From: Patescibacteria group bacterium
GTDB lineage: Bacteria > Patescibacteriota > Patescibacteriia > SG8-24
Assembly (NCBI GenBank): GCA_028714475.1
Contig: JAQTNC010000003.1
Coordinates: forward strand, 15,596 to 79,595
Length of the DNA: 64,000 nucleotides
Direction: 5' to 3'
Below are positions 3,766 through 64,000 of the stretch, one piece after another. The notes below the pieces were generated by a model, which saw only the letters and a list, made by a program, of their open reading frames with translations, was not told the DNA's origin and ran no database searches. The translations under genes were made by a program, and so were the position numbers. Numbering within the stretch: the first letter of the stretch is position 1; each line of letters starts with the position of its first letter.

Positions 3766-3802
3766 GCCCTCCCCCGGAGCTTTCTGGGAGAGGGCGGTTT
3801 TG
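3766..3802 (+). terminator. Rho-independent terminator
   Basis: The hairpin gccctccc...gggagagggc is followed by ggtttt. Confidence 0.45.
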
Positions 3803-3962
3803 TTCACCTCCGCCGAATACCCCGGGCGTCAGCCCGGGGTTCCTGACGCGTGAATCCCCCGAAGCCCCGCAGTACTGCGGGGCGTAGGGGGCAGTGGGCT
3901 ACGGTGAATGAAACAGGATGGGGCGTTAGATACCCCGGGCGTGAGCCCGGGGAGTCTTCATA
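3800..3962 (+). repeat. R2 repeat element, copy a (about 165 bp, structured; second copy at 31070..31232)
   Basis: ttgttcacctccgcc-aataccccgggcgtcagcccgggg ... tgacgcgtgaatcccccgaag-[variable hairpin]-gggggca..gggctacggtgaatgaa ... gataccccgggcgtgagcccggggagtcttcatat. It is about 85% identical to copy b. Contains two CCCCGGGCGTNAGCCCGGGG hairpins and a CCCCGCAGTACTGCGGGG hairpin. Confidence 0.6.
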
Positions 3963-4037
3963 TCAGGAAACAAATTCGTAGATTCGCTCCGTTTAAGTGC
4001 CTTGTATCTTTCTCCTTTTGGACTTCGGCTCCCCTCT

Positions 4038-15537: not shown

Positions 15538-15547
15538 GGAAGTGCTG

Positions 15548-18500
15548 TCAGTGGTTTTGGGGTTGCATGACGACGTCAGTCAAGGGCCGGTGTTGGGCCG
15601 AATCAACCGGCAACTCGAACCAGAAAGTGCTGCCTTCGCCTTCAGTGCTTTCGAAACCAAGTCGGCCCCCATGGCGTTCAGCGAAATAACGGGCGACGTA
15701 CAGCCCGAGTCCCGATGAATCCGGTTTCATGAGCGGCGCGTTGGTGGCGCGATAGAACCTTTCGCCGATGCGGTGCTGTTCGGCCCGCGGGATGCCAATG
15801 CCTCGGTCGGCCACCTCAAAACGGATGGCTTGAGGCGAAAACGACAGCTTGACGGTGATGTGACCGTTTGACGGCGAATAATCGACGGCGTTTTCGAACA
15901 GGGCGGTCATGGCCAGCCGCACCTTGTCCGGATCGGCGTAAACGACGGGCAACGGCCCGGTCGGTTTCACCAAATCCACCGTCAGGATCTTGGCCGCACA
16001 TCGGCTAGCCAGGGAACGGTGAACCGCTTCCCACAGGCTGTCCGCCGAAAACTCCTCTCGATTCAGGACGGTGCGCCCTTCCTGGATGTCCACCGCCGTC
16101 AGCATTTCGCCGATATTCCTGATGACGTCATTGGTCTCGTCACGAACCACCCGCAGGAATTCCTTCTGCGCCGACGGCAGTTCGCCTATTTGACCCTCAA
16201 GCATGGCCTGGATATTCCAGTTCACTGACGCGAGCGGCATCCGCAACTGTTGGGAAACGAACTGATTAAGCTTGTTCTGCAGCCGCTCGGCGTCGCGCAG
16301 CCGCCCTTCAGCCTGCCGGCTGGCGGTGATGTCCTGAACCAAACCATCCAGATAGGCGTGGCCAGCCGCGTCGGTCTGCCGACTGACCGATAACCTTACC
16401 CAGATCTTCCGCCCCTTGAAGGTCTTCACCATGATTTCCTCGTTCTTGAGTTGGCCTATATCGTTCAGCCTGGCTAGCATCTGGCCCCAAGCGGACTCGT
16501 CGACCCTCAAGTCGTTAAGCGGCAAGGTCAACAGATGTTCCAGCGAATCGACCTCGAGCAGGCTGACGGCCGCCGGATTGGCGTATAGGAACTTCCCCTC
16601 TGGGTCGGCCAAACACCGGAAAACGCCGACCGGCAAGCCGGACAACAACGTCTGACTGCGCTCGCGCTCCTCGGCCAATTGCGTTTCCGTCTGCCGCCGC
16701 TCGGTGATATCCTCGACGATGCAGTCGAAATAACCGCCGCTCGGCCCGCGCCGATACACGGCCGTAACCTCGCACAAAATTGGGCGACCCTTCAGTGTCC
16801 TTAGCTGCAAAGGGTAGTCGCGCAATGTCCCCTTTTCCTGCAAATCCTTCTCAAAAGCCTCACGGTCACGGTCGTTGACATACAGGTCGGCAATGGGATG
16901 ACTGTTCAACTCATCCCGCGAGGCCGCCTCGAACATGACGGCGGCGGCGTCATTCAGATCGACGAACCGGCCTTGCGGCCCGGGCGTCCGGCGATAGACG
17001 GCGACCGCGAGGTTGTCGAGCAGGGAGGCATACCTCTGTTGCGATTCCGCGAGTGCCTCCTCGGCGACACGCCTTTCGGTGACGTCACGCAAGGCCCCGA
17101 TGACCCCGTGCGGCTGGCCGTGCTCGTCCAAACGCTGTCGGACGACGGCCTCAAGCCAAACCGCCCGCTCACCGTCGCGCTTCAGGCGCACGATGACGGG
17201 CTGGCCGGACGGATGGCCGCCGTGAGCCATCTCGTCCCGCATCTGCTTTTCCACCCTTGGCCGGTCCTCGTCGGCGACGAAATCCATCAGGGGACGACCG
17301 ACGGCCTTTTCCGGCATCAAGCCCAAGCGGCTGGCCTGGGGACTGACGTAATCCAGGATGCCTTTCGGGTCAACACTGAAAACCACGTCATAAACGTTCT
17401 CGGCCAACAGGCGATAGCGCCGTTCGCTCTCCGCGAGTGCCTTCTCCGCCTCGTGTCGTTCGGTGATGTCGCGCACGAGCGAGATGACGCCGACCGGACG
17501 ACCCTGCTCGTCGCGCTGGACGCGCCCAATCTCCTCGACCCAGAAAATCTTTCCTTGAGGGCTGACGATGCGCATCTGCATCGGGTGCTGTTCGCCGGTG
17601 GTCAGCGTCATCTGGAGTTCCGCCGCGACCCGCTCCCGATCATCCGGATGGATGACTTCCAGGATGTTCCTCCCGATGTCGCCCGGCCCGTAACCGAACC
17701 GGCTGGCTTGCGGACTCAAGAAGGTGATGCGGCCGGTGCCGTCCACCACGTTCACCACGTCACTGGAGCCTTCGACGATGGCGCGATAACGCGCCTCGCT
17801 TTCCATGAGCGCCCCCTCCGCCAGCTTGCGTTCGGTGATGTCGTGAAGAACGCCGGTCAAGCCGATGATTTTCCCTGCCGGGTCGCGCTGGACGTGGTCC
17901 GACTCTTCCATCCAATGAACGTTGCCGGACCGGTCACGCACGCGGAACTCAATACGCACCTCCTCGCCGGTCTCCATCTCTCTCGTGAACATCGCCGCGA
18001 CATTTTCTGCGTCCTCCGCGACAATCAAGCCAATCTCCATGAACGACCGGCCCACGATCTCCTCCGGCGCCCGGCCTAACCGTCGGCATTGGGGGCTGAC
18101 GTAGGTGACCTTGCCGTCGCGATCAAGCGTAAAGATGATGTCCGGGCTGTTCTCGGCAAAGGCGCGGTAGCGAGCCTCGTTTTCGGCAAGTGCCTTCCCG
18201 GCCTTGACGCGGTCGGTGATGTCGCGGGCTATGCCCAACATCATCCGCCGACCCTGCGCCTCAACGGGATAAGCCGTGATCTCGATGCTGATGATGTCGG
18301 CGTGATTCGGCACCTTCGCGCTGAAAACCGTCGGCGGAACCGGCTGGCCGGACGCAACCATTTGGTTGATGCCTTGCAGGATTTTTTCGTCCTCGGGCGT
18401 AGCCGGATCGGTCTTGGCTGCCACCTGGCCGATCAAATCCTCACGGCTCACGCCGTTCAGGGCCGCCATCTGATAATTAACGTCCACGAAGGCGCCTGTT

Positions 18501-21500
18501 TCCACGTCAATCAAATACATCGCGTCCGGCGCCTTTTCGAAAATGACGCGGAAACGCTCCTCAGAAGTGCGCAAGTGTTCCTCCGCCATCCGGCGCCGGG
18601 TTACGTCGCGCATCACGCCGACAAATCCGGACGCCTGACCGGCGGCGTCGCGCTGAATGGCGACGGACGACTCAACCCAACGGGTGACACCGCTCTTGTC
18701 TCGGACGCGGAAGATGACCGGCGCGGCCGATGGCCCGAGCTCCGGCAAGGAACGCCAATACTCCTCGGCCACCTCGCGATCCTCCGGCAGGATGAGGTCG
18801 AGGAAGCGCTTGCCCAGGCACTCCTTCGCTTCATAACCCAATTGCCGCACTTGCGAAGAGCAATAGGTGAGCCATCCGTCAGGGGCGGCGGAAAAGACGA
18901 TCTCGTTGGAGTTGTCGATGATGGTGCGGAGCCGCTGTTCGTTTTCGGCGACGCGTTCCTCGGTCTGCAGGCGCGCGACGACCCCGCCGAAATTCGCCAC
19001 GTAAGCTTCCAAGGCGGCACGGCTCACGGGCGGGATCGTTTCCGCCTGATGGGATGCGAAAAGACAAACGGCCACCAAGCGCTCGGCGTGCCGCACCGGC
19101 AAGACCGCCGCGCAACGCAACCCCTCCTTCTTCATGACCGGACCAGAGGAACCGGCCGACAAGACGGTCGCCTTCAGGTAGGTCGGCGTTCCTTTGGCAA
19201 CCACGGCCAGCAAATCTGAACCTGCCGAATACTGGTAGACTGCCTGGACAAAGCTGTCGCTAAAGTTCCGATGAACGGTGAGCTTGAGCGAACCGTCCGG
19301 TTCGACCAGATAGACCCCGCCGCAATCCACTCCCTCTGCCTGAACAGCGGCCTCAAGCATGATGATGCCGGCTTCGGCCACGGAAGGCGCCAAGGCCAGG
19401 CGCTGGGCGAGCTCGCGCTCCATGTTGACGAGCCCCTCGACGCGCCGGCGTTCGCTGATGTCGCGCAAGGTGCCGATGATGCCGACCATCTGACCCGTCG
19501 GGCTGAAGCGCGCCTTGACCGTCGCCTCCACCCAAATCGGCTCGCCCTGCTCGTTCACGGCTTGGCCAGTCACGACCACCGGTTTCCGCACTTCGGCCAC
19601 ACGGGCCGGATCGGACACGGACGCGGCCTGTTCCCGGTCCTCCGGCACCAGAATCTCGACGAACGGCCGTCCGACGAACTTTTCCGCCTCCTTGCCGAAG
19701 TGCCGAATCTGCGGGCTGACGTATTCGACGCAACCGTCGGTTCCCGCGACAAAAACGGCGTCACTGATGTTTTCCGAATACTCGCGGTACCGCTGTTCCT
19801 CGTCAGCGATCCGCCTTTCCGCGCGCTTCAGTTCAGTGATGTCAGCGGCATAGACGCGGATGGCATCGGGTTCCGCCAAAACCGTCACCGCTTGCCAATA
19901 ACAGGCGTCGCCCACACATACTTCGCGAGCCGCCTGCCCGCTCGACGGCAACCCCTTGACGAAGGCCTCGATGCCCACGAGGAAAGGATGCCCCGAACCG
20001 CGCGCCGCGAGGTCAGGGAAAAGCGCCTTGGCCGCCGGGTTGGCATAGGTGATCTCAAAATGACGATTACATTCGAGCACCGGGTGCGGATTGCGTTCGG
20101 GAAAAGACGACAGCCGTTCCGTCTCCGCCTCCAGGCGCTTGAATTCCGTCATGTCCACGGCCACGCCGCTCATGCCCACGATCTGATCGCCGCGACGCAA
20201 GGGGGTCGTATAGAGGGCGGCCGTGATGACGTGGCCGTCCTTGCCGACCAACCGGTACTCGTTGGCGTGGTGAGTTTCGCCAGCCAACACCTTGGCGATG
20301 TTGGCGGCGGCACGGGCACGATCTTCCGGCGCCACCAAATCCGTGAGCCTGACGCCGGACCGAAAATCCTCGTCCGTGTAGCCGGACAATTCCTTGGCGC
20401 CGCGGTTCCAAAAGACCACCCGCCCCTCCAAATCCGCCGCGAAGACGATTTGCGGCAGGACGTCCATGGATTCGCGGAAGCGCTGTTCGGTTTCGCGCAC
20501 GGCCGACTCGGACTGCCGTTTGGCCTCGCGCAGGCGCAGGATCGCGATGCCGTAGGCCAAATCGTCTGTCAAAGCCATTAGCAAGCCCTCGCTTTCCTTG
20601 TCAAAGGCGTCAACCTCAGATGAAAAAAACTCGATGACGCCGATCGTGCCTTCGGCCAGACGAAGCGGCAAGGTCAGGCTCGATCGCAGGCCTTGCGCCA
20701 AGGCTGCCTGCCGCCACGGCTGGAACGTCGGCTCGGTAGCCAGGTCTTTCGCCAAGACCGGCAAGCCGGTGCGGATGCACGCCCCGGTCGGGCCGCGACC
20801 GCGCTGCGTGTCCGACCAAACCACCTGCAGCTCCTTCAGGAAATCGCCATGGGTGCCCGCGGAGGCGACTGGCCGTACGGTCTTGACCTCGTCTTGCTCG
20901 GCCAGGCCGACCCAAACCAGTCCGTAATCCCCGAAACGCGCGATGATGCTGCAGACGTCGTTCAGAAGAGCCGGCTCGCTGTCCGCCCTGGCCACGGCCT
21001 CATTGACCGCGACCAGGATGCGCAAGGACTTTTCGTGGCCTTTCGCTTGCCGTTCGAGCAGGCGCCGGTTGGTGATGTCGGAGAAAACCGTCACTACCCC
21101 GACGGTCTTGCCGGCCGCATCGCGCAAGGGGGCGGCGTTGACCGACAACATCTTTCGTTTTTCCGCCACGCGAACGGCGAACTCTACGCCCAGGACCGCT
21201 CGGCCGGTGGTCCGAACGACATTGAAAGGCAAGTGTTCTTCCGGGAACGGCCCGCCAGCCACGTCCTCTATCTGCCATCGGAGGTCATTTTGGGGCCGGC
21301 CAATGAATTCGCTGCGGCTGATGCCCAAGACGCCTTCGCCGGCCTCATTCACGAAGGTGAATCGTCCGGCTTCGTCGATCAGCGCCACACCTTCCGGCAC
21401 CGCCTCGATGATGGTCTTCAGCCGATCCGTCTGCTCGCGATTCAGGCGCTCGATTTCCTGCCGCGCGGCCGCGTCATGGATGATGCCGATGATGAGCGAA

Positions 21501-29409: not shown

Positions 29410-29906
29410 GTGCGAAGCACACTTTGCGGAATAGATGACTTCATTTCGCGAGGCCGCCCCTCCCGTCGTGACGGGAGGGGCCCGCAGGCCGAGCGCATAC
29501 GATTATTTAGTTGGTGAATGTTTGGTTTCTAGAAGAGGCCGGGCGGGGTCGCCCTTTAAGGCCACTCGACGCCCGCGTCGGCTCGGTCCCCGAGCTTGCC
29601 CTGAACCATTACGGTTCAGGGCTTGTCGAGGGGCGACGCGGGTCGGCGACGTGAGCGACGGCCGCCGCTGGAGCGGCCGAGCGTGCCGTAAGGCACCGGA
29701 CAGAACCTCGCCTCGCTCGGTTCGTCCGATGGTGTGCCTTTCGGCGATCGGTTGCGGCCTTGGCCGCGCCTTTCGGTGTCCGCCCGCGCGCGGGCGGACT
29801 TCGCCGTAAGGGCGACCCCGACGGCCGGACGCCTGTTACTTGTTCTGCCCCTCGACTTCGCTCGGGGAAGAACAGGTATCGCGGGGCGGTGGTCGAAGTG
29901 CACACT
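29410..29906 (+). repeat. R1 structured repeat element, copy A (about 495 bp, with an internal about 100 bp partial duplication)
   Basis: Begins gtgcgaagcacac-tttgcggaa..gacttc..cgcgagg, then a hairpin, then the conserved cccgcaggccgagcgcatacgatt. Ends ...cgcggggcggtggtcgaagtgcacac. Paralogous to elements at 48682, 61614(-) and 62680. Confidence 0.75.
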
Positions 29907-29917
29907 ATAAAATAAAA

Positions 29918-29948
29918 TGCCGGCTACCCGCCGGCGTTTTCGTTTTTT
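29918..29948. terminator. Bidirectional rho-independent terminator
   Basis: aaaatGCCGGCtacccGCCGGCgttttcgtttttt. Confidence 0.8.
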
Positions 29949-30615
29949 ATGTCGGGTTCTGTGGCGATCTATTCTGTCGCCGGTATTCGCGATAGCTGAA
30001 AACAACGATGACGGTAATCGCTATCAATATGCCGAACATCATCACCAGAAACGGCACCGGCGCCGGCAAGCAGGCGCTCAAGGCGATGGCACCCGCGAGC
30101 CAACGGAAAACCAGGCCGCCAAAATGATGCGTCGTCTCCCAAACGGCATCGGACTCAAGCGTCCAAGGCAAGCGCAAGCCGATGGAATAATTGCGTCGCG
30201 TCTGCGGCAAGAGCCAGGCGACTTCCCAAAGGAGCGCGGCCATGGCGACGCTGATGACCGGCACCATCGGCACGGCCACGCCAGCGCCAGCGAGCAGGGT
30301 AGCGGCCTGAAGAAACGCCATGAACAGGACGAACGCCAATCGGAAACGGGCGTAGGCGTTCGCGAACACGGCGATGTTGACGCGGAGCGGATCGAACCGC
30401 GGCACGAACGCGAGCAGTATCGCCAAACCGGCCGTGAAAAGCGGCAGAAACAGCACCGCCGCCGTCCGGCTCCACCAGCCGTCCGGCTGGCCATTCACCC
30501 CCCAGTGCGCAGGCACGACCGCCGGCAGAAAATTCCAAGCCGCCGCGCTGGCGAGCGCGGTCACGACCAAGACGACAACGGAAAGCCAATCGTAGCGGGA
30601 CAGTCGTAGGTTCAT
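29947..30615 (-). CDS. SdpI/YhfL-like integral membrane protein (DUF1648 + SdpI-type)
   Basis: ORF 29947..30732 trimmed to the ATG at 30615 (MNLRLSRYDWLSVVVLVVTALA...). Six predicted TM helices. Confidence 0.6.
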   Translation of the reverse strand: MNLRLSRYDWLSVVVLVVTALASAAAWNFLPAVVPAHWGVNGQPDGWWSRTAAVLFLPLFTAGLAILLAFVPRFDPLRVNIAVFANAYARFRLAFVLFMAFLQAATLLAGAGVAVPMVPVISVAMAALLWEVAWLLPQTRRNYSIGLRLPWTLESDAVWETTHHFGGLVFRWLAGAIALSACLPAPVPFLVMMFGILIAITVIVVFSYREYRRQNRSPQNPT

Positions 30616-31043: not shown

Positions 31044-31073
31044 GCCCCCAGCATGCTGATGGGGCTTTTTTTG
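31044..31073 (+). terminator. Rho-independent terminator
   Basis: agcccccagcatgctgatggggct followed by ttttttt. Confidence 0.8.
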
Positions 31074-31232
31074 TTCACCTCCGCCAAATACCCCGGGCGT
31101 CAGCCCGGGATTTATGACGCGTGAATCCCCCGAAGTCGCCCGAAGGGTGACGAAGGGGGCATCGGGCTACGGTGAATGAAGTATGAAGGGGTCCTAGATA
31201 CCCCGGGCATGCGCCCGGGGAGTCTTCATATT
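31070..31232 (+). repeat. R2 repeat element, copy b
   Basis: Same architecture as 3800..3962 and about 85% identical to it, except for the variable central hairpin. Confidence 0.6.
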
Positions 31233-43617: not shown

Positions 43618-43635
43618 GCTGATGATATAAATTGT

Positions 43636-43735
43636 AGCGGCCGGGCTTGTCCCGGCACCACCTTAGACGAACTAATGAATTTATAAGCGGTGATGCGTTT
43701 TTGGTGGGGCAGGGATAAACCCTGCCGCTACAATT
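43636..43735. repeat. Pair of inverted copies of the palindromic motif (GTAGCGGCCGGGCTTGTCCCGGCACCACC ... GGTGGGGCAGGGATAAACCCTGCCGCTAC), 35 bp apart
   Basis: Direct reading of the sequence. The same motif is found at 455..485 and at 32405/32490. Confidence 0.6.
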
Positions 43736-44596
43736 TTAGATGACCGCGCGGACGGTGATGCCAGCCGGCAGAAGGAAGCCGCGTGGGGATTTTTCCTGCA
43801 GGACCAATTCTACGCTTTCAATGCTCGCGGCATCAGGAAAAACGTCGCGCACGGCCTGCTCGACGGCGATGGCCGGAAAACCCATGGAGTAGGCGTTGAG
43901 CAGAAGCAGGCCGCCGGGTTTCAAGATTATCCGGCACGAATGCAATAGCGGCAGGAGGTCAGACTCAAAACGCCACAGCTCCTTATTCGGTCCGCGCCCA
44001 AACGCGGGTGGATCCATGATGATGGCGTCATAGATTCGTTCACGCCGTGCCTCGCGCATCACGAATGTCGCGGCGTCGTCCTCAATCCACCGGACCGGAC
44101 GGTCGGCAAATCCGGAAAGCTCGGCGTTGTGTTTCGCCGCCGCAATGGCCGGCCGGCTCGCGTCCAGGTGCACGACCGACGCGCCAGCGCTCAAGGCCGC
44201 GAGCGTCGCTCCACCGGTATAGCCGAAAAGATTCAACACCTGCGCCTCCGGCTTCAACCAACCGCGTAGGTACGCCCAGTTCGCCGCCTGTTCAGGAAAA
44301 ACGCCGGTGTGCTTGAAGGACGAGAGGCGCAAGCCGAACTTGAGATTCTCCCAGCGCACGCTCCAGTCATCCGGCGGATTATTGCGCACCTGCCAGGAGC
44401 CTTCCTCGCCGCGCTGTTCGAATCGCGCCACCGCCCGTTCCCAAACTTCCGGCAAACCCGGCGACCACAAAGCATGCGGCTCCGGCCGCGCCACCACGAC
44501 CGCGCCGAACCGTTCGCATTTCATCTGGTCGCCGCTGTCGAGGAGCTCATAGTCCTGCCAGACGGCGATTTCCCTGTTTAATGTCTCACCGGCCAT
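43736..44596 (-). CDS. Class I SAM-dependent rRNA methyltransferase (RlmI/RlmK-like)
   Basis: 286 aa with SAM-binding motifs VLNLFGYTGGA...DPPAF. Confidence 0.8.
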   Translation of the reverse strand: MAGETLNREIAVWQDYELLDSGDQMKCERFGAVVVARPEPHALWSPGLPEVWERAVARFEQRGEEGSWQVRNNPPDDWSVRWENLKFGLRLSSFKHTGVFPEQAANWAYLRGWLKPEAQVLNLFGYTGGATLAALSAGASVVHLDASRPAIAAAKHNAELSGFADRPVRWIEDDAATFVMREARRERIYDAIIMDPPAFGRGPNKELWRFESDLLPLLHSCRIILKPGGLLLLNAYSMGFPAIAVEQAVRDVFPDAASIESVELVLQEKSPRGFLLPAGITVRAVI

Positions 44597-48681: not shown

Positions 48682-48987
48682 GTGCGAAGCACACTATGCG
48701 GAAAAATGACTTCTTATCGCGAGGTCTGGCGACGCCCAGCGTCGCCGCCGCAGGCCGAGCGCGCATACGATTTTTTTTGGGGAGGTGGCGCGGAGGCCGC
48801 CGCCCCTAGCGTCATCTTAGAGCTTCCGTAGGAGCCGTTCGTCTGGAGGCCGCAGGCCGCGACCGGAATGAGGGAGCGGCGCGGCCGCAAGGCGGAGGCG
48901 GCGACACAGGAAGCGACCTGATGACGCGGGGCGGCGGCCGGAAGCGCCCGGCGACCTTCTGGATTCCCCCGCAAAGCGGGACTTCAC
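48682..48987 (+). repeat. R1 structured repeat element, copy C (conserved 5' and 3' modules, divergent middle)
   Basis: Begins gtgcgaagcacac-tatgcggaa..gacttc..cgcgagg, then hairpin ggcgacgcccagcgtcgcc, then gccgcaggccgagcgcgcatacgatt. Ends ...cgcggggcggcggccggaagcgcccggcgaccttctggattccc. Confidence 0.7.
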
Positions 48988-49785: not shown

Positions 49786-49861
49786 TGGAGCCGACGACCG
49801 GGTTCGAACCGGTGACCTTCTCCTTACCATGGAGATGCTCTACCAGCTGAGCTACGTCGGC
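49786..49861 (-). tRNA. tRNA-Thr (anticodon GGT)
   Basis: GCCGACG-TA-GCTC-AGCTGGTA-GAGC-A-TCTCC-ATGGTAA-GGAGA-AGGTC-ACCGG-TTCGAAC-CCGGT-CGTCGGC-T-CCA. Confidence 0.75.
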
Positions 49862-50241
49862 ACGAGGAAATATGCGGGGAAAGAACTGACTTAGCCCTCG
49901 GTCGTCGGCTCCCTGCGGAAAAATGCGGGGTGCTCTACCAGCTGAGCTACGTCGGCGTGATCGATTTTTTTTACTATGTGCAAGGACCTGGGCTGAACCG
50001 GTGACCTCCCCGCGTTGCCGCGGGGTGCTCTACCAGCTGAGCTACGTCGGCACGAGGAAATATGCGGGGAAAGAACTGACTTAGCCCTCGGTCGTCGGCT
50101 CCCTGCGGAAAAATGCGGGGTGCTCTACCAGCTGAGCTACGTCGGCGTGATCGATTTTTTTTACTATGTGCAAGGACCTGGGCTGAACCGGTGACCTCCC
50201 CGCGTTGCCGCGGGGTGCTCTACCAACTGAGCTACGTCGGC
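49862..50241 (-). repeat. Two tandem 190 bp repeat units (about 99% identical), each carrying two tRNA-Thr 5'-half-like fragments (acceptor + D-arm) joined to non-tRNA hairpins
   Basis: Unit 49861..50050 recurs at 50051..50240 with 1 mismatch. Fragments GCCGACGTAGCTCAGCTGGTAGAGCACC are followed by CCCGCGGCAACGCGGGG or CCGCATTTTTCCGCAGGGAGCCGACGACCG. Confidence 0.8.
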
Positions 50242-56446: not shown

Positions 56447-56682
56447 CGCCGCGCCCGACAACTCTCCCTGAGCCACCCTCGGCTCCCCGACCGCGCCCGT
56501 TCTACGACGACGCGGTTTTGTTTTCCTTCAACCGCCGACAATTCTACCGGTGCCTGTCCCCCTTATCCACAGGGACAGTCCCTTTGGGGACTGTCCCCTT
56601 AACATAAAAACCCGTGGCCAAAACGCCACGGGCCTCCTCCTGAAAAAATATTCCTGAAAAACGATCTGGAGAGGAACCCGGG

Positions 56683-56945
56683 CTTTGCCGAAGCTGCCTA
56701 GGCAATGGTGCCTCGTTCGGCTGCTGCCAGTCGGAACCGGCGGCGGCCGAGTCGGCGCCTCCCCTGAACCGTTATGGTTCAGGGGTCCCTCCTCCATGTC
56801 GCTTGTCAGGAACGCTGTTATGTTGCGAATCACCACCCGGAAAACAAGATGGAGATGGAACCTAGGCTTTGCCGAAGCTGCCTAGGCAATGGTGCCTCGT
56901 TCGGCTGCTGCCAGTCGGAACCGGCGGCGGCCGAGTCGGCGCCTC
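56683..56945 (+). repeat. Two direct copies of an about 95-130 bp repeat (56683..56762 and 56866..56945), each followed by a CTCC-TCCAT-TCGCTT box. Flanked by hairpins gggacagtccctttggggactgtccc (56559..56588) and ccctgaaccgttatggttcagggg
   Basis: ctttgccgaagctgcctaggcaatggtgcctcgttcggctgctgccagtcggaaccggcggcggccgagtcggcgcctcc occurs twice. The track ORFs in it (MPKLPRQWCLV...) are duplicated and probably non-coding. Confidence 0.65.
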
Positions 56946-57222
56946 CTCAACCCACCGAGGCGGATTAAGGCTCCCCCCTCCATTTCGCTTTCAAGGTGTT
57001 CATTTTCGAACAGATAACCATAGCACAAAAAACCCTTCTTGTCAAGGGTCGGCGGCATTATTTGAACACGGATTTTATTCAGCAAAATCGCGTCAAATAC
57101 AGACGAAAATTAATCAACAACTGGGCCATATTTGACATTCACTCTCCCCACAGATAATCTTCAGCCGGTCGGCCGGTCCAACCAACCCACCGATCCGCAA
57201 CTAGAACAGCAAAGGAGCCTCC

Positions 57223-57360: not shown

Positions 57361-57674
57361 ACCGGAGTCGAGCCTCTCTCGCCGCCGACTGCCGCATCAC
57401 CCACCCTTGGGTCGCGCCGGTCGGTTTTTGTATACTCGAATTGGAATGAATTCGTGGATACCCTCCTTCGCCTGACGGCTACGGAGGGTAGGTCGACCCG
57501 GCGGAGCCGCCAGCGGGGGCTGGCGCGGAGGGCCGTCCCGAGGGCGCGGGCGGAACGCGCCCGGCCCGGAGCGCCTGCCCGCGCGGGCGGCGGAGCGGGT
57601 CGCGAGCGGCCCGGACCCGCCCGGTCTCCACACTAAACGACGAAGAACCGTTTATTTAGAAAACCGTCAACCAC

Positions 57675-57699
57675 TAAAAACGCCCCGTTGCCGGGGCGT
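57675..57699 (-). terminator. Rho-independent terminator after frr
   Basis: acgccccg-ttgc-cggggcgt with an A-run on plus (a T-run on the transcript). Confidence 0.8.
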
Positions 57700-57714
57700 C
57701 TTACCAACTAATAC

Positions 57715-58272
57715 CTAAATCGTCATTATCTCTTTCTCTTTCTCCTCCCCCATCTCCTTGATCTTCTCATTCCACCCGGCGGCGGTCTTGTCGAGCGCTT
57801 CGAGCAGACGGTACTTCTCGTCCTCGCCGATCTCCTTGCTCTTCTCGGCCTCGACAATCTCCGACTTCGCGGCCTCGCGCACGCCGCGGACGCCGATGCG
57901 TGCCTGCTCGAGCTTCTCGCCCATGATCTTGATGAGATCGCGGCGCGATTCCTCGGTGAGCGGTTGGAGCGAGATGCGGATGAGCTTGCCCTGGACGTTC
58001 GGGGTCAGGCCAACATTGGCGTCGGCGATGGCCCGCTCGATGTCCTTGACCACGTTCTTGTCCCACGGGTCGATGTTGATGGTACGGCTGTCCGGCGTCG
58101 AGATCGACGCCAAGCCCTTGATCTGCGTCCGCGAGCCGTACGCCTCGACCATGATGTTCTCGACGAGCGCCGGCGTGGCGCGGCCGGTCCGGAGCCCGCC
58201 GAGCTCGAGCTTGAGGAAATCGATGGCGTCCTGGAATTCCTGCTGATGAGCGGAGATGATGTCGCTTGGCAT
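57715..58272 (-). CDS. frr: Ribosome recycling factor
   Basis: 185 aa with canonical RRF sequence (…NVGLTPNVQGKLIRISLQPLTEESRRDLIKI…). Confidence 0.9.
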   Translation of the reverse strand: MPSDIISAHQQEFQDAIDFLKLELGGLRTGRATPALVENIMVEAYGSRTQIKGLASISTPDSRTINIDPWDKNVVKDIERAIADANVGLTPNVQGKLIRISLQPLTEESRRDLIKIMGEKLEQARIGVRGVREAAKSEIVEAEKSKEIGEDEKYRLLEALDKTAAGWNEKIKEMGEEKEKEIMTI

Positions 58273-58273
58273 A

Positions 58274-59350
58274 TTATTTCTTGAATTTGGTCGTACCCAT
58301 ATAGAGGATGGCCGAGTTGGCGCGATCCACCAGCAGCTGCGTCGCGGCGCGCGTGGTCACGAGCTTCTTCGGCACCCAGTTGAGGCCGCCGTCGCTCGTG
58401 CGATGAAAGGTCGTCGCCGTGCCGTAGTAGATGACGTTCGCGTCACGCGGATCGAGGGCGAGCGAATAGATGGCCGAGCCGCCCGGCGGCGTGAGCAGGT
58501 TGATGGCCTCCCAATTCTCGCCGTTGTCCTTGGAGCGGATGAGGCCGTACTTCGAGGCCAGGATGATCGTCTTCGGATCCGCCACGCTGACGGCGAAATC
58601 GCGGAATTCCTTGGCCCCATCGAAATCCTTGTACTTCTCGCTCAAGTCCAACCAGGTCGGGGTCATGCCGCCGTCGTCCGTGCGCCAGACACCGTGCTTC
58701 AGACTGCAGACGTACATCTGCCTCGAATCAATCGGGTTGAAGGCAATCTTCACGACCTCGGTGCCGAAATTGTCCACCTTCTCCCAGGACTTGCCGCCGT
58801 CGGTGCTGCGGAGCAGGTCGCCGGCGTCCTCGCCAAGCCAGACGATATCCGGATTGAACCAGTCAACGGTCACGGCGGACGTCTTGCGCTCAGGTCGGGC
58901 ATCAACGAAAACGGCGGTCCAGGTGCGCGAACAGTCGTCGGTCTTCATCAGGCGGTTGCCGCTCGTCGCATAGATCGTGCACTTATTCTTCGGATGAACG
59001 GCGATGCCCGCGACCATGCCGCTCTTGAGCCCGGGCGCCTGTGCCCAGGATTCGCCGCCGTCGTAGGAGTAAAGGATGCCGGCGTCAGCCGTGCCGACGT
59101 AGAGCGCGTTCGGGTCCTGCGGATCCTGCGCCAGTGCGGACACGGACAGGCCGCTGAAGCTCTTCTTTTCCCCGGTCGCGGTCAGGATGGCGGTTTTCTG
59201 CACCCAAGTCTCGCCGCGGTCGCCGGATTTGAAGACGCCGCCGTCCGAGCCGGAATTATCCGAACCGGAACCGCCGACGGTGACGCAGCCCGCGCCCATA
59301 AGCGCCAAGGTCGCCAAAACGCAGACCAAAATTTTATATCTCGTGTTCAT
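58274..59350 (-). CDS. BNR/Asp-box repeat lipoprotein (Ycf48-like beta-propeller)
   Basis: ORF 58274..59500 trimmed to MNTRYKILVCVLATLALMGAGC (lipobox). Five S-x-D-x-G-x-(S/T)-W Asp-boxes (SGDRGETW, SYDGGESW, STDGGKSW, SKDNGENW, TSDGGLNW). Confidence 0.75.
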   Translation of the reverse strand: MNTRYKILVCVLATLALMGAGCVTVGGSGSDNSGSDGGVFKSGDRGETWVQKTAILTATGEKKSFSGLSVSALAQDPQDPNALYVGTADAGILYSYDGGESWAQAPGLKSGMVAGIAVHPKNKCTIYATSGNRLMKTDDCSRTWTAVFVDARPERKTSAVTVDWFNPDIVWLGEDAGDLLRSTDGGKSWEKVDNFGTEVVKIAFNPIDSRQMYVCSLKHGVWRTDDGGMTPTWLDLSEKYKDFDGAKEFRDFAVSVADPKTIILASKYGLIRSKDNGENWEAINLLTPPGGSAIYSLALDPRDANVIYYGTATTFHRTSDGGLNWVPKKLVTTRAATQLLVDRANSAILYMGTTKFKK

Positions 59351-59496
59351 AACAAATGATAGATTGACCTCGACGCCGACGATTTCGTCTGCCGTCCAGG
59401 CATGAGGCATTAACGGGAAAATCTTATCATGGCTGATATTTAAGCGGAAGACCTGACAAAAAATACAGAGATGCGGGGTGGCTTTTTTGCGTCCAG

Positions 59497-60540
59497 TCAC
59501 TTAGCTGTTGCCGCCGCGAGACAGCCGAGGGCGACGCGGCCAGCGACGTTCTCCGACAGCATCCGGCGGCTTTCCTCCAAGGCTTCCAACGTCGCCGCAA
59601 TGCGGCTCGACCCAACTCGGCTGGCCCAGGCGGCGATGCGTTCGCGCACGTCAAGATGCGTCACGAGTTCAGGACACCCGTTCGCCGCGAAAAGCGCGTC
59701 CTGCAGGAGTTCGGCGAGCAGGGCCAGCGTTTCGCGAGCGCGGTCGGTCGCTTCGTTGAACGGCAATTTCTCCGGCACGTTCGACTCCAGCGCGAGCCAA
59801 CGGTCGGCGAGCCCGGCTTCCAGCGCGTCGAGCAAGCGGTTGCGCTGATCCAACATGGCGGCCAGCCTATCCGGTTCGTTGAAATAGGTCAGGGCCCGGC
59901 CAGGACAGCCGGACGACAATCTGGCGAGGAGTTGCGCATCTTCATCCGTCGCTCCGGCCGCGCGCATCGCTTCGGCAATTGCCTCCTCCGGCACGCGGCC
60001 CAGCGCCACAATCTGACAGCGCGATCGCACTGTCGGCAAGACGCTATCCGCCGAATCCGCCGTGAGCAGGAGCACGGTCTTTTCCTTCGGCTCCTCCAGA
60101 CTCTTCAGAAGCGCGTTGCCGGACTCCTTGTTGAGATGTTGGGCGCCTTCGAGCACGACCGCTTTCCATCCGCTGCCCATCGCGCCGAGCGACAGCCATC
60201 CGACCAGATGCTGAACCTGTTCAAGCGCGATGTCCTTGCGTGGCTTGCCGGTCTTGGGATCATCGCCGCGTTCAACGAGCAGGAAGTCAGGATGAATCTC
60301 CGGTCGTTCGGCGCCGAGCACGCGTCCGACAAACCACCGCGCGAGCGTCGCCTTGCCCACGCCATCCGGACCGGTCAACAGATACGCATGCGCCAACTTT
60401 CCGTTCGTCCACGCGCGGTCGAGAAAACTCGTGATCTGCCCGTGGCCAATCACGTTCCGGTTCACGGCGATCTTCCGCCTTTGGGTCGCGCCTTTCGACC
60501 CTGCGTCAGGTCCAGCTGATCTCGTTTTCCTCACCGGCAT
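59497..60540 (-). CDS. holB: DNA polymerase III subunit delta'
   Basis: ORF 59497..60654 trimmed to MPVRKTRS... AAA+ clamp-loader fold (HAYLLTGPDGVGKATLA) without a functional Walker B/arginine-finger context typical of delta'. Confidence 0.75.
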   Translation of the reverse strand: MPVRKTRSAGPDAGSKGATQRRKIAVNRNVIGHGQITSFLDRAWTNGKLAHAYLLTGPDGVGKATLARWFVGRVLGAERPEIHPDFLLVERGDDPKTGKPRKDIALEQVQHLVGWLSLGAMGSGWKAVVLEGAQHLNKESGNALLKSLEEPKEKTVLLLTADSADSVLPTVRSRCQIVALGRVPEEAIAEAMRAAGATDEDAQLLARLSSGCPGRALTYFNEPDRLAAMLDQRNRLLDALEAGLADRWLALESNVPEKLPFNEATDRARETLALLAELLQDALFAANGCPELVTHLDVRERIAAWASRVGSSRIAATLEALEESRRMLSENVAGRVALGCLAAATAK

Positions 60541-60846
60541 AGCAGGAAAAGGATAACAAATCTGCCTTGATGCGTTAAATGACGCTTCAAGTCTTGTGAC
60601 GCAGATATTCGAGCCATTGAAATGTAGCGACCGCCTTGAGCGGTGCCCGCCCAAGGCAAAAGAAATCTTTTTCGAAATCCTCTGTGGATAACTTTTTACT
60701 TAAAAATAATAACGATGTGAATATTTGCTTCTATTTAGCCATTTTTTTGAAATGTTTCCGTATCATGTCAATTATTTGACACTTTCTAATCTGGTCGGTA
60801 ATGTCTCCGCAACCCATGGGTTCCTTTCATTCCCCTAGCCGCCATT

Positions 60847-61386
60847 ATGGGCAAAGACAAAACCCCTTCCGCCGCCAGCACGTCGGTGGAAACGGCTCCG
60901 AACAGCGAGCAGCAAGCGGCCGTCGCGGCCGCCATCGCCAGCTTTCGGGGGCTTGGTTCGCTGCGCCTCACTTTCTGTGACCGCTCGCCCAATCCTTACG
61001 CCGACGAAACAAAATCCTTAATCGACATCTATGTTGACGACAAAGGCCACGAATACTGGTTCGACCCTACCGCTGACCGGCTGGTCCAAGTTGGTCCGCA
61101 CGCGGGTCGCCATCAAAAGGCACTTCAAGTTAAATCAGCCGATCGCCTGCCGGTCGCGCGCCTCCGCGAGCTAGCGCTGGAACTCGCCGGCAAGGCCGTG
61201 GAGAATTTCCAGACGCGCCGCGAGAACCTTCATCCGCTCGAGGACAACCGCAAGGGGCAGATCTATTTCTTCCGGTGGGACGATTTCTCACAGCCCGTGA
61301 AGGAATCCGAGATGCCGCCGTTCCTGCAGGTCGCGCTCTACGCCGACGGCCGCTTGGCCAGCTTCACCGATACTCTGCGACATTAG
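60847..61386 (+). CDS. Hypothetical protein
   Basis: 179 aa. No recognisable domain. Confidence 0.5.
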   Translation: MGKDKTPSAASTSVETAPNSEQQAAVAAAIASFRGLGSLRLTFCDRSPNPYADETKSLIDIYVDDKGHEYWFDPTADRLVQVGPHAGRHQKALQVKSADRLPVARLRELALELAGKAVENFQTRRENLHPLEDNRKGQIYFFRWDDFSQPVKESEMPPFLQVALYADGRLASFTDTLRH

Positions 61387-61613
61387 AATAGACACCGGCA
61401 CGGAGATTGACTGCCGGCCGGAATAAAACAAAAAGAGGCCTCGTCGCATCCTCCCGCTGGGTGCAAGCGGAAAACCAATACAGAAACCCGAAATCGTCCG
61501 CCTTTTCGGCAAATCGCTCCTTTCGAAGCATGACAAGACACGCAAAACCGGTCCGTTTCGTGGGAGAGGGACCGGTTTGCGTTTGCGACAATAAATAATT
61601 ACCCATCTATTGC

Positions 61614-62000
61614 CACCACCCCCGCGAAAGCGGGGGCCCAGAAACAACACGTGCGCTCCGGCCGCCGCCCCGCGGCATAATGTTCTTCCACGAGCGGAGC
61701 GAAGCGGAGTCGAGGGGCAGAACACGAACAACGTCCGGCCGGTCGGGGCCGCCCTTACGGCACGCTCGCCGCTCCGGCGGCGGCTTCGCTCGACTTCGCT
61801 CGCGATGTCCCCCCGCAGTACTGCGGGGGGCACCAAGCCATCGCTCGCTCGAACGGCCTTAAAGGGCGGCCCCGCCCGACCTCATCCAGAAACTCACCTC
61901 AACCTATAATAGATAAGCGCTCGGCCTGCGGGGGCCGCCAAGCATGGCGGCCCGGCCTCGCGTAATGAAGACATCTTTTCCGCAAGGTGTGCTACGCACG
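61614..62000 (-). repeat. R1 structured repeat element, copy D (inverted orientation; its 5' end faces the low-GC cargo)
   Basis: Reverse complement reads cgtgcgtagcacacc-ttgcggaa..gtcttc..cgcgagg, then hairpin gggccgccatgcttggcggccc, then ccgcaggccgagcgc ... ccccccgcagtactgcgggggg ... gccgcggggcggcggccggagcgc. Confidence 0.7.
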
Positions 62001-62045
62001 TTTAAAAAAGGACAAATCCAAAAGATTTTCTAATCGCTGAAAATG

Positions 62046-62633
62046 CTAACAACAATTAGCGAAAAAAAGTTCGTCATCTTCGGCAATCGGCATCCACGGT
62101 CCCAACATTCTCACATCGCCATCTTTAAATGAGACTTCAACATCGATGCCCTGCTTTCTAGTTTTATAAACCAATTTGTCAATCGAAAATATATCCTTTT
62201 CATTTGAACGAATTTCAAGAGGTATATCACTAATGTGCTTTAACAGCCATTCTTGAAAATCAAACCATTTCGGCAATCTAACGATATCATCAGGCAATTT
62301 ATTCAATTTCAATACCGCACATAATTCCCTTCGCAGAGAATATAGGAGCGCGAAATCGGATAATTCTTTTCTTAAGGTCGCGTTTGGCTGCGTTAAATAT
62401 TGTTCAAACTTATCTAGCCAATATCTTGCACAAGACCAACGCAACGCATTATGTACTGACCAATTCCGAAATAGTGTTACTTGTCTAAATTGATCATCGT
62501 CTGATATTCCATCTCTTTCAAACAATCGGCCCAACTGCACCAGTATATATACTACGTCACTTTCACTATCAATATTGCCATGAATCTTTTTAGACAACTT
62601 TTCCAATATTTCATCTGTCATACAATATTGCAT
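62046..62633 (-). CDS. Orphan hypothetical protein in an about 0.7 kb low-GC (about 35-40%) foreign segment
   Basis: 195 aa ORF (MQYCMTDEILEKLSKKIHGN...). Sharp compositional contrast with the high-GC flanks. No recognisable motif. Confidence 0.6.
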   Translation of the reverse strand: MQYCMTDEILEKLSKKIHGNIDSESDVVYILVQLGRLFERDGISDDDQFRQVTLFRNWSVHNALRWSCARYWLDKFEQYLTQPNATLRKELSDFALLYSLRRELCAVLKLNKLPDDIVRLPKWFDFQEWLLKHISDIPLEIRSNEKDIFSIDKLVYKTRKQGIDVEVSFKDGDVRMLGPWMPIAEDDELFFANCC

Positions 62634-62679
62634 CTTATGCTTAACACCCTCGCGTACTTCAATAATATTTCATACTTTC

Positions 62680-63050
62680 CTTGCGGACGACTTGTCATCC
62701 TTACGCGAGGCCAAGCGGCGCCTAATGCGCCGCTCCCGCAGGCCGAGCGCATACATTTTAAAGGGGTTGGGGTTGTTTTCAAGGCGAGGCCGGGCGGGGT
62801 CGCCCTTTAAGGCCACTCGACGCCCGCGTCGGCTCGGTTCCCCCGCAGTACTGCGGGGGACGACGCGGGTCGGCGACGTGAGCGAAGGCCGCCGCTGGAG
62901 CGGCCGAGCGTGCCGTAAGGGCGACCCCGCCCGGCCGGACGTCCGTTATTTGTTCTTCCCCTCGACTTAGCTCGGGGCAGAACGCTTGCCGCGGGGCGGC
63001 GGCCGGAAGCGCCGGCTGTTCCTGGATTCCCACCTTCGCGGGAATGGCGT
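62680..63050 (+). repeat. R1 structured repeat element, copy B (5' end faces the low-GC cargo; 3' end abuts the murD stop codon)
   Basis: cttgcggacgacttgtcatccttacgcgagg, then hairpin agcggcgcctaatgcgccgct, then cccgcaggccgagcgcatac ... ccccgcagtactgcgggg ... gccgcggggcggcggccggaagcgccggctgttcctggattccc. Confidence 0.7.
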
Positions 63051-64000
63051 TCATTTTTTCCCCTTCACCCCACGCACAAACTGCTCCCCCCGATCAAATT
63101 CGTTGATGAACATTCCAAAACTCGCGCAGCCGGGCGAGAGCAAGACGATGTCGCCGCGGGAGGCGCAGACGCGGGCGGCAGCGAGGGCATCGTTCATTGA
63201 GCCCGCGACCAAATATGGCGTCTTGGCGCGCACGGCGTTCAAAGCCGCAACCATTTTCGGTGTCGCGGTGCCGTCAAAGAAAACGATCGCCTTGGCATAA
63301 CGCTTGGCTTCCTTGGCCCAATCGTCGAAACGCAGGGCCTTGTCCGCGCCGCCGGCGAGCAAGATGATTCTTTTCTTTTTCCCGCCGAGCGCCTTGAGCG
63401 CCGCGATAGCGGCATCCGGCGCGGTCGCGGTCGTGTCGTTAATATATGTAACCCCGCCCTTCACGGCGATTTCTTCCAGCCGATTCGGCACACCGCGAAA
63501 AGCGCGCACCGTAGCCGCAATGGTTTTGGCTGGCACGTCGAGCGCCATCGCTGCCGCCGTCGCCGCCAAAACGTTGGCAACATTATGCTGACCGAGCAGT
63601 TTGATGGAGCTAACCGGAAAAATCCGACGCAGCTTGCCGCCGACGGAAAAGACGACGAACCCGGCAACCACGGAACACCCTTCGCCGCTGCGCATCGGAT
63701 GCCCCGAAAACCAGATGACTTTCGGTCCAGCGGCCCTTTTCTCCAACAATCTCTCCCCCATCGCCCGGACCCGCGCGTCGTCGTGGTTGAGAACGGCGAC
63801 GTCGCCGGTTTTTTGTGAAGTGACAATCAATTCCTTTGCCCGCGCGTAATCATCAATGTCGCGATAGGTGTTTAGATGGTCCTCCTTGATGTTGGTGATG
63901 ACCGCGACGTGAGGGCTCAAGCGATGCTGTTCCAGTCCTTCAACCTGCCAAGAGGAAAGCTCCAATACTACCGGTGGCGGAATCAGGCGCCGGCGACGGG
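63051..64000 (-). CDS. murD: UDP-N-acetylmuramoyl-L-alanine--D-glutamate ligase, C-terminal approximately 315 aa; the gene continues past the right edge of the window
   Basis: Mur-ligase central and C-terminal domains (VAVITNIKEDHLNTY...). The frame remains open from 63965 to 64000; the track start is a TTG. Confidence 0.85.
   Translation of the reverse strand, partial: RRRRLIPPPVVLELSSWQVEGLEQHRLSPHVAVITNIKEDHLNTYRDIDDYARAKELIVTSQKTGDVAVLNHDDARVRAMGERLLEKRAAGPKVIWFSGHPMRSGEGCSVVAGFVVFSVGGKLRRIFPVSSIKLLGQHNVANVLAATAAAMALDVPAKTIAATVRAFRGVPNRLEEIAVKGGVTYINDTTATAPDAAIAALKALGGKKKRIILLAGGADKALRFDDWAKEAKRYAKAIVFFDGTATPKMVAALNAVRAKTPYLVAGSMNDALAAARVCASRGDIVLLSPGCASFGMFINEFDRGEQFVRGVKGKK

Follow-up and report, generated by a model that had tools for sequence, protein, structure and literature searches.

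The DNA analysed here, hereafter the window, is a stretch of 64,000 nucleotides (nt) from a Patescibacteria group bacterium (contig JAQTNC010000003.1), and near its right-hand end a single AT-rich gene lies between two inverted copies of a non-coding repeat that we term R1. The left copy is complete, while the right one belongs to a variant lacking the 5′ hairpin, termed R1′. We consider it about an even chance (probability roughly 0.5) that the segment between them, the cargo, is a foreign cassette captured at the 5′–5′ junction of a pre-existing R1/R1′ pair, such that the locus would represent an occupied landing site and not a transposon. We favour this reading because the cargo begins and ends exactly where a covariance model built on 24 copies places the 5′ ends of the two R1 elements; because pairs devoid of cargo exist; because the architecture recurs at a different locus with a different cargo; because a solo R1 occupies the orthologous site in a relative; and because each of the six relatives examined has other content at that site. 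It also draws on the foreign character of the cargo, the orientation shared by the two known cargo genes, the selected structure of R1, the promoter-like sites on the R1′ side, and the homologues of the cargo gene, which are likewise of lower GC than their flanks and have no conserved neighbour. The locus comprises the following features.

61612..61999, minus strand: complete left copy of R1 (R1_L), with its 5′ end (61999) toward the cargo and its 3′ hairpin at about 61619-61636; covariance-model match at 61909-61999 (105.9 bits); fold z = -3.7
61987..61999, minus strand: near-palindromic 5′ hairpin GTGCGTAGCACAC of R1_L, read from the sequence; the cargo begins at the adjoining base
62000..62666, no strand: low-GC cargo segment of 667 nt (GC 0.36), filling the gap between the two R1 5′ ends; edges taken from the covariance-model alignment of the 5′ modules
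62046..62621, minus strand: cargo gene of 191 amino acids (aa) counted from methionine 5 (M5), or 195 aa from an alternative upstream ATG at 62633; member of an uncharacterised, rare family with an invariant W..H
62667..63050, plus strand: hairpin-less right copy, R1′, with AT box ATTTCATACTTT at 62667-62678, body from CCTTGCGG at 62679 and terminal hairpin at 63026-63045

A preliminary description of this DNA had reported a sharp drop in GC content here, and the drop is real: 200-nt windows across 62000-62699 give 0.345-0.38, against 0.64-0.72 in the adjacent R1 copies and a window-wide value of 0.604. In 300-nt windows, the only parts of the 64 kb to fall below 0.45 are the cargo stretch and the intergenic region 60501-60900. 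GC content at third codon positions (GC3) is 0.34 in the cargo gene, compared with 0.70-0.73 in two neighbouring genes. The cargo is foreign, given that its GC of 0.36 and its GC3 of 0.34 lie far below the values of the host. The single minus-strand open reading frame (ORF) of 195 aa described at 62046..62633 is present, although its start is more likely to be M5 (62621), which is the start used by its homologues and by the NCBI annotation of this metagenome-assembled genome (MAG; locus tags at the site PHT12_01800 and PHT12_01805).

Inverted R1 copies with their 5′ modules facing the cargo had also been described, and both the alignments and the inverted-repeat arms agree. The left copy (61621-61987) matches the right (62679-63042) at 76% over 383 nt by BLAST and at 82% identity over 366 aligned nt in a global alignment, and the arms pair at 61849-61904/62765-62820, 61731-61768/62905-62942 and 61947-61987/62679-62719, among others. 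The right copy matches the covariance model at 62667-62758 (61.3 bits), has a fold z of -4.7, and is 93-96% identical across 62773-62920 to another R1 copy in the window at 29 kb. As had been noticed, it lacks the canonical GTGCGAAGCACAC and begins with ATTTCATACTTT. The suggestion that the cargo junction therefore lies inside the right element is not supported, since this hairpin-less start is the natural variant R1′, with a conserved AT box that is found in cargo-less pairs as well. The statement that this copy ends exactly at the murD stop codon is correct to within a few bases: its terminal hairpin stops 5 nt short of that codon (63051-63053).

R1′ is a recurring variant of R1 in which an AT box of 12-13 nt replaces the 13-nt GTGCGAAGCACAC hairpin, and we found it only as the head-to-head partner of a complete R1. 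The AT box reads ATTTCATACTTT in the window, ATTTAAATACATT at locus L070, ATTTAAAACTAC at L028 and ATTAAATATTT at L010. Loci L010 and L028 are two cargo-less pairs in the MAG CAYPMU01, in both of which hairpin, AT box and R1′ body abut exactly. At L028 the inverted arms (50-109/131-190) are 21 nt apart and the junction runs from the hairpin through ATTTAAAACTAC to TTTGCGG; at L010 the arms are 27 nt apart. The R1/R1′ pair thus forms a long quasi-palindrome around an AT-rich centre, and occurs without cargo.

The other known pair does carry cargo. In answer to the question of whether R1 pairs elsewhere bracket low-GC DNA, we found one, L070, a metagenome contig from the Joint Genome Institute (JGI; Ga0316628_100020634) with the same R1-cargo-R1′ layout beside serS. 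The 5′ end of its complete R1, which has the hairpin and lies on the minus strand, is at 4262; its R1′ runs on the plus strand from 5162, beginning ATTTAAATACATT; and its inverted arms of 78 nt, 83% complementary, stand 924 nt apart. The cargo of 899 nt (GC 0.32-0.43) holds a minus-strand ORF of 247 aa with a NERD domain (PF08378; 63.9 bits, gathering cut-off 22.1; E = 2.4e-17) and, by eye, an N-terminal hydrophobic stretch that possibly spans the membrane. At both occupied sites the cargo exactly spans the gap between the two 5′ ends, and the ORF is directed toward the complete R1, its orientation with respect to R1 and R1′ being shared. The two cargos themselves are unrelated, one encoding a member of the W..H family and the other a NERD protein, and the R1 copies that flank them have diverged. 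A capture of foreign DNA between two R1 units, which the preliminary description had offered as an alternative, fits both the cargo-less pairs L010 and L028 and this second low-GC gene.

Relatives give a view of the same site with other contents. Five syntenic loci share the gene order GlyRS, RRF, BNR protein, holB, small gene, 179-aa homologue, variable slot, murD, the slot being the interval that in the window holds R1_L, cargo and R1′. Its anchors in the window, and its contents in the relatives, are as follows.

60847..61386, plus strand: conserved hypothetical gene of 179 aa, an ORF forming the left anchor of the slot; homologues at 50-65% identity in the same synteny
61545..61578, plus strand: hairpin 3′ of the 179-aa gene and likely its terminator; an inverted repeat whose 15-nt arms are separated by 4 nt, with a T-rich tract after it
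63051..64000 (runs beyond the window), minus strand: 3′ part of murD, the right anchor of the slot, with Mur_ligase_M and Mur_ligase_C domains; orthologues in relatives 53-62% identical
Slot in L074/L075: solo R1 and an ASCH gene
Slot in L073: a 175-aa gene, a 134-aa gene and a YgjP-like gene
Slot in L076: a 180-aa gene, a DUF2196 gene and a methyltransferase gene
Slot in L077: a 175-aa gene alone
Slot in L078: a DEAH helicase gene

The region between the 179-aa gene and murD (61386-63051) reads as a hypervariable accessory slot inside an otherwise syntenic core region. The solo R1 of L074/L075, between the 179-aa homologue and murD, matches the window's left copy in position and strand, and the slot there contains neither an R1′ nor a low-GC gene, its genes being of normal GC. 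Because this solo R1 stands at the orthologous position, the left R1 evidently can occupy the locus without cargo. The low-GC cargo ORF was found in none of the syntenic relatives examined; together with the GC and GC3 values, its absence from the slot supports the horizontal acquisition proposed earlier, although these relatives are distant (50-65%). We also observed that, among the homologues of the 179-aa neighbour, the closest (63-71% identity, varying with the alignment) lies at 2926-3432 of L071 (JBINNZ010000517.1). This contig of 8.6 kb carries small genes, all in one direction, with HNH, HTH_36 and ParB domains, and looks phage- or plasmid-like, which would mean that the 'core' neighbour is carried by a mobile element as well.

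R1 itself is a new family of structured, modular, multicopy intergenic repeat in a clade of high-GC Patescibacteria. It is non-coding and 200-500 nt in size. Its conserved 5′ module of about 85 nt consists of GTGCGAAGCACAC, CYTTGCGGA..CGCGAGG, a variable hairpin and then CCGCAGGCCGAGCG; an AU-rich linker and a GC-rich body varying in length and content follow, and a shared 3′ module with an end hairpin closes the element. The window contains exactly four copies, at 29410-29905 (+), 48682-48985 (+), 61999-61612 (-) and 62667-63050 (+), all of which fold considerably better than shuffled sequence (z = -3.7 and -4.7 for the two beside the cargo, -5.6 and -8.1 for the others). The two away from the cargo are solo.

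29410..29905, plus strand: solo R1 enlarged by a 110-nt insert; an intrinsic terminator comes after it at 29914-29950
48682..48985, plus strand: solo R1 sharing the 5′ and 3′ modules but with a different central domain

The set of 24 copies of the 5′ module was gathered by pattern scans of public genomes and metagenomes, then by nhmmer and the covariance model, and comes from the window, the MAGs CAYPMU01 and JBAIXY01, seven metagenome contigs and one syntenic relative. The first genome-wide pattern scan gave 58 loci, comprising 9 R1 and 49 chance matches in GC-rich genomes. The R1-bearing loci outside the window are L003, L006, L010, L017, L023, L028, L032, L049, L054, L064-L070 and L074, and most copies are solo, adjoining ordinary genes. 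Conservation between genomes is usually confined to the 5′ module, which shows about 75-87% identity. In three copies from metagenomes the alignment extends into part of the body as well (about 270 nt at about 71%), and in L074, the sole case with comparable flanking genes, the flanking proteins are 50-65% identical. At one of these loci, L069, an ORF at 2019-2306 resembles a GIY-YIG (URI-type) nuclease by eye, about 420 nt upstream of the R1 5′ end.

Because of compensatory changes in helix P3, we regard the structure of R1 as being under selection. All eight P3 pairs (8/8) show changes on both sides, and pairing is kept with entirely different stem sequences; the covariation score of 0.182 compares with 0.071 in shuffles, none of which (0/500) reaches it, and with at most 0.057 when the partners are slid. 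The alignment behind this score was fitted by the model and is hence biased toward the structure, though free folding of each P3 region agrees with it. Helix P1 is 94.8% paired across the 24 copies, while the outer stem, CGCGAGGCC with GGCCGAGCG, is invariant and so is neither supported nor contradicted by covariation.

Searches of Rfam gave no R1 match even at E <= 10, with only tRNAs reaching the gathering score in the window; neither R1 nor the cargo matched anything in phage, plasmid and viral collections, and a literature search for such repeats in Patescibacteria returned nothing relevant. Two known kinds of element were considered for R1 and rejected: a group II intron, suggested by a GUGCG start, for lack of an Rfam intron match and of a domain V-like hairpin by eye, and with a centre too variable; and a palindrome-associated transposable element (PATE) of the IS200/IS605 type, since the left flanks have no fixed tetra- or pentanucleotide. 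Its nearest analogues are the modular dispersed repeats such as the pneumococcal BOX (boxA-boxB(n)-boxC), enterobacterial REP/BIME and Neisseria Correia elements. With these R1 shares its multicopy, intergenic and non-coding nature, its modular ends around a variable middle, its strong folding, its frequent location at gene 3′ ends beside terminators, and the breaking of short-read assemblies. It differs in having no sequence or Rfam relationship to them, in being larger (200-500 nt), in forming specific 5′–5′ pairs with a hairpin-less partner, and in a 5′ module that is about 75-87% identical between genomes.

First described as an orphan without a recognisable domain, the cargo protein indeed has no match in Pfam, NCBIfam, PADLOC or PHROGs, but it is no orphan: an exhaustive phmmer search finds 222 remote homologues at E <= 0.001, about 180-220 aa long and 25-35% identical (31% for the closest), starting at the M5 position. 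W54 and H57 are invariant in the family and K8, E20, Y25, K32, W119, F122 and P134 nearly so, and none of the four databases holds a family that matches more than two of the 80 homologues scanned. AlphaFold2 (AF2) run on the alignment gave a confident model, with a predicted local distance difference test score (pLDDT) of 90.9; a single-sequence model reached 37.6 and was discarded. The structural check proposed earlier thus yielded a confident model without a fold match, the search having covered PDB and viral models.

The homologues are metagenome singletons, and the loci examined show no R1 and no conserved neighbour or partner. In three other hosts their GC is 0.48-0.50 against 0.55-0.59 in the flanks, and one homologue adjoins a transposase. 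Such a profile is that of a rare, horizontally moving accessory or selfish gene. No evidence supports a role in defence, the PADLOC search being without a match, and as our best guess the protein works on its own as a selfish or accessory factor, perhaps with nucleic acids as its target. One family member, P0020 (294 aa, JGI), is fused behind an RNase_T match covering profile positions 3-72 of 164. We considered this exonuclease fusion as a functional clue and rejected it, as it is a truncated gene joined to the family ORF and not a domain architecture; it looks as if the family gene had landed within an exonuclease gene.

Consensus scans reveal two promoter-like sites on the R1′ side of the cargo.

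62641..62668, plus strand: promoter-like site TTAACA-16-TAATAT, from a consensus scan only; putative R1′ start at about 62675-62679, near CCTTGCGG
62755..62782, minus strand: promoter-like site TTGAAA-16-TAAAAT (10/12 matches in the consensus scan), in the AU-rich linker of R1′ and reading toward the cargo ORF

The 29-kb copy has an equivalent antisense promoter-like site at 29502-29531 (-), and R1 may carry an outward-facing promoter that points past its 5′ end. On the antisense strand of the linker, a sigma-70-like promoter is seen in two copies, and a third has a perfect TATAAT at 61907-61912 (+). From its position on the strand of the cargo ORF, we infer that the complete R1 would form a structured 3′ untranslated region (UTR) ending in the R1 terminal hairpin, and the terminal hairpin of R1′ (63026-63045) could serve both strands.

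If the cargo was captured at the R1/R1′ junction, the sequence of events might have been as follows. The pair would have been present before the cargo, and hairpin or cruciform fragility may have produced a break at the centre of the quasi-palindrome, into which end joining or recombination with incoming DNA would then have inserted the cassette, consisting of one gene with short leader and trailer sequences. Alternatively, entry could have been by a site-specific activity, possibly one encoded by the cargo itself. The slot may then have supplied expression, through the promoter-like sites on the R1′ side and the complete R1 as 3′ UTR or terminator. Long palindromes are unstable, with hairpin or cruciform centres being cleaved, for example by SbcCD in E. 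coli, leading to breaks and rearrangements. The likeness here lies in a quasi-palindrome with arms of at least 42-78 nt and a cargo exactly at its centre; the difference is that the mechanism at this locus is purely inferred.

Several observations weigh against capture at the junction. We identified no machinery for insertion, such as a recombinase or a nuclease. The pairs known among the 24 R1 copies number only four (two empty, two occupied), and the shared ORF orientation, at 2/2, is weak. The relatives are distant (50-65% protein identity, with none above 90%), such that the comparison of empty sites, one of the checks proposed earlier, does yield a solo R1 without a low-GC gene in L074 but is not a clean test. 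Wobble counts (10 G.T against 15 A.C) do not discriminate between the strands of R1, nor between RNA and DNA. The exact cargo protein is on record from the NCBI MAG only, and Logan assemblies with the neighbouring gene do not have it; at the outer context, the population may be heterogeneous or the assembly may have been joined through the repeat.

This last point raises the question of whether the whole arrangement is an artefact, in which a chimeric join mediated by the repeat put a fragment from another population between two R1 copies. The single source of the exact cargo protein would be consistent with this, as would the ends of the short-read Logan contigs: L079 (SRR22315509) is 100% identical to window positions 57551-61642 and L080 (SRR22315508) to 60706-61807, and both end inside R1_L. 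Such breaks are to be expected in a repeat. Any false join must itself fall in R1, in which case the cargo would natively be flanked by R1 5′ modules anyway, both junctions lie at precise element ends, and the independent JGI assembly L070 has the same architecture with another cargo, making us highly sceptical that the arrangement arose in this way. That the order of events was reversed seems unlikely to us for different reasons. Were R1 mobile with a preference for AT-rich targets, it could have inserted independently at both edges of an island that was already there; an AT-rich box does abut every R1 5′ end (TTTAAAT, ATAAAAC, TTTAAAC), and a low-GC island in a 60% GC genome provides such targets on both sides. 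However, this order of events leaves unexplained why exactly one copy per pair lacks the hairpin (4/4 pairs), why the cargo-less pairs abut exactly, and why the R1 of L074 stands without a low-GC gene.

The preliminary description had named a composite transposon first, and in composite transposons and in units mobilised by flanking miniature inverted-repeat transposable elements (MITEs), such as integron mobilisation units, two inverted MITE-like repeats do flank a cargo. Here too, two inverted copies of a non-coding repeat bracket a short segment with a single foreign gene, L070 shows the same layout at another locus, and R1 is multicopy and hence probably mobile now or formerly, so that R1, cargo and R1′ might move as one composite or foldback unit, with a transposase specific for R1 acting on it in trans. 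Nevertheless, other features of the locus disagree with this proposal, and we think it very unlikely to be correct. No transposase is encoded within 61612-63050. A check for target-site duplication at 61612 and 63050 found none, the longest match shared by 61570-61635 and 63030-63095 being at most a 6-mer, which is equalled or exceeded in 60% of shuffles. R1 has no ORF and no terminal inverted repeats, since it has the GTGCGAAGCACAC hairpin or an AT box at its 5′ end and variable hairpins at its 3′ end; its conserved modules face inward, and the outer 3′ ends vary in length and sequence. The flanks, far from being near-identical, are 82% identical, which is below the 84-86% that either shares with the 29-kb copy. 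The two occupied units differ in cargo and lack near-identical R1 copies, empty pairs occur, one flank is ancestral at the locus (the left R1 standing alone at the orthologous site in L074), and the same unit was not met as a block elsewhere, with the closest cargo homologue only 31% identical. A last possibility is that the parts were selected together as an RNA-protein module, with transcripts of R1 and R1′ regulating or neutralising the cargo protein in the manner of a toxin-antitoxin system or a riboregulated defence gene. The constant orientation of the ORF at the two occupied sites, the divergent and overlapping transcription that the promoter-like sites predict on the R1′ side, the place of the complete R1 as 3′ UTR of the cargo mRNA, and the selection on R1 structure would all be accommodated. 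We hold it to be rather improbable, given that the two cargos are unrelated, that R1 copies are mostly solo beside ordinary genes, that homologues of the cargo occur elsewhere without R1 or a conserved partner, and that PADLOC gave no match.

A stronger version of capture at the R1/R1′ junction is that the junction is a dedicated site for acquiring cassettes, at which R1 modules would serve as recombination or target sites for a recombinase or for homing nucleases encoded by the cargo, and which would provide a ready-made expression slot composed of an R1′ promoter and an R1 terminator or 3′ stabiliser. We give this only a small chance of being right. It would resemble integron cassettes and attC sites in that single, promoter-poor foreign genes lie beside structured repeats whose structure is kept while the stem sequence varies. 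In contrast to attC, however, the repeats are inverted and not direct, are 3-5 times longer at 380-390 nt, and form no cassette arrays; among the called genes of those R1 loci whose gene tables were read, we noted no integron integrase. Free-standing homing endonuclease genes offer another likeness, being solitary low-GC genes at a precise, repeated and conserved target, and it may be relevant that the L070 cargo is nuclease-related through its NERD domain and that P0020 is joined to a truncated exonuclease gene. The window's cargo differs from these in that no nuclease motif or fold was detected in it.

Other repeats in the window lie away from this locus. A second family, unrelated to R1, has two copies of about 165 nt (3798-3963 and 31069-31231; 85-94% identity) with GC-rich hairpins CCCCGGGCGTCAGCCCGGGG. 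A perfect 190-nt tandem duplication (100%) at 49836-50215 starts inside a tRNA gene (49789-49861, minus strand), and is either real or an assembly artefact. A 90-nt direct repeat of 98% identity (56673-56762 and 56857-56946) has its copies 184 nt apart, start to start, and an inverted repeat at 43629-43736, with 41-nt arms that are 80% complementary and 26 nt apart, makes a large stand-alone hairpin. Finally, direct repeats with a period of 370-385 nt at 12081-19496 fall in two very long minus-strand ORFs (about 11.5-15.6 kb and 15.6-22.7 kb), and are probably repeated protein domains.

Overall, we conclude that the locus is a small genomic island situated where two copies of a new family of repeat meet, and that there is a modest chance of the junction being a dedicated cassette site. 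It shows a point at which single AT-rich genes insert precisely and recurrently, namely the centre of the quasi-palindrome formed by two R1 copies. The analysis also defines a new family of proteins of about 190 aa, whose fold is predicted with confidence and for which no relative is known. Should the junction be a mere coincidence of repeats and a variable slot, what is left is an ordinary small genomic island. If it is a general landing site, then R1/R1′ pairs would be a simple marker for recently acquired accessory genes in these MAGs, they would illustrate, as a case study, the influence of dispersed structured repeats on gene flow, and there would be reason to test R1 as an RNA, given that it has no Rfam match. 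Patescibacteria, also known as the candidate phyla radiation (CPR), have tiny genomes, and to our knowledge little has been established about how they take up and express foreign genes. A dedicated site, if that is what the junction proves to be, would give these reduced genomes a means of repeatedly capturing and expressing small foreign genes, an integron-like function arising from a new repeat.

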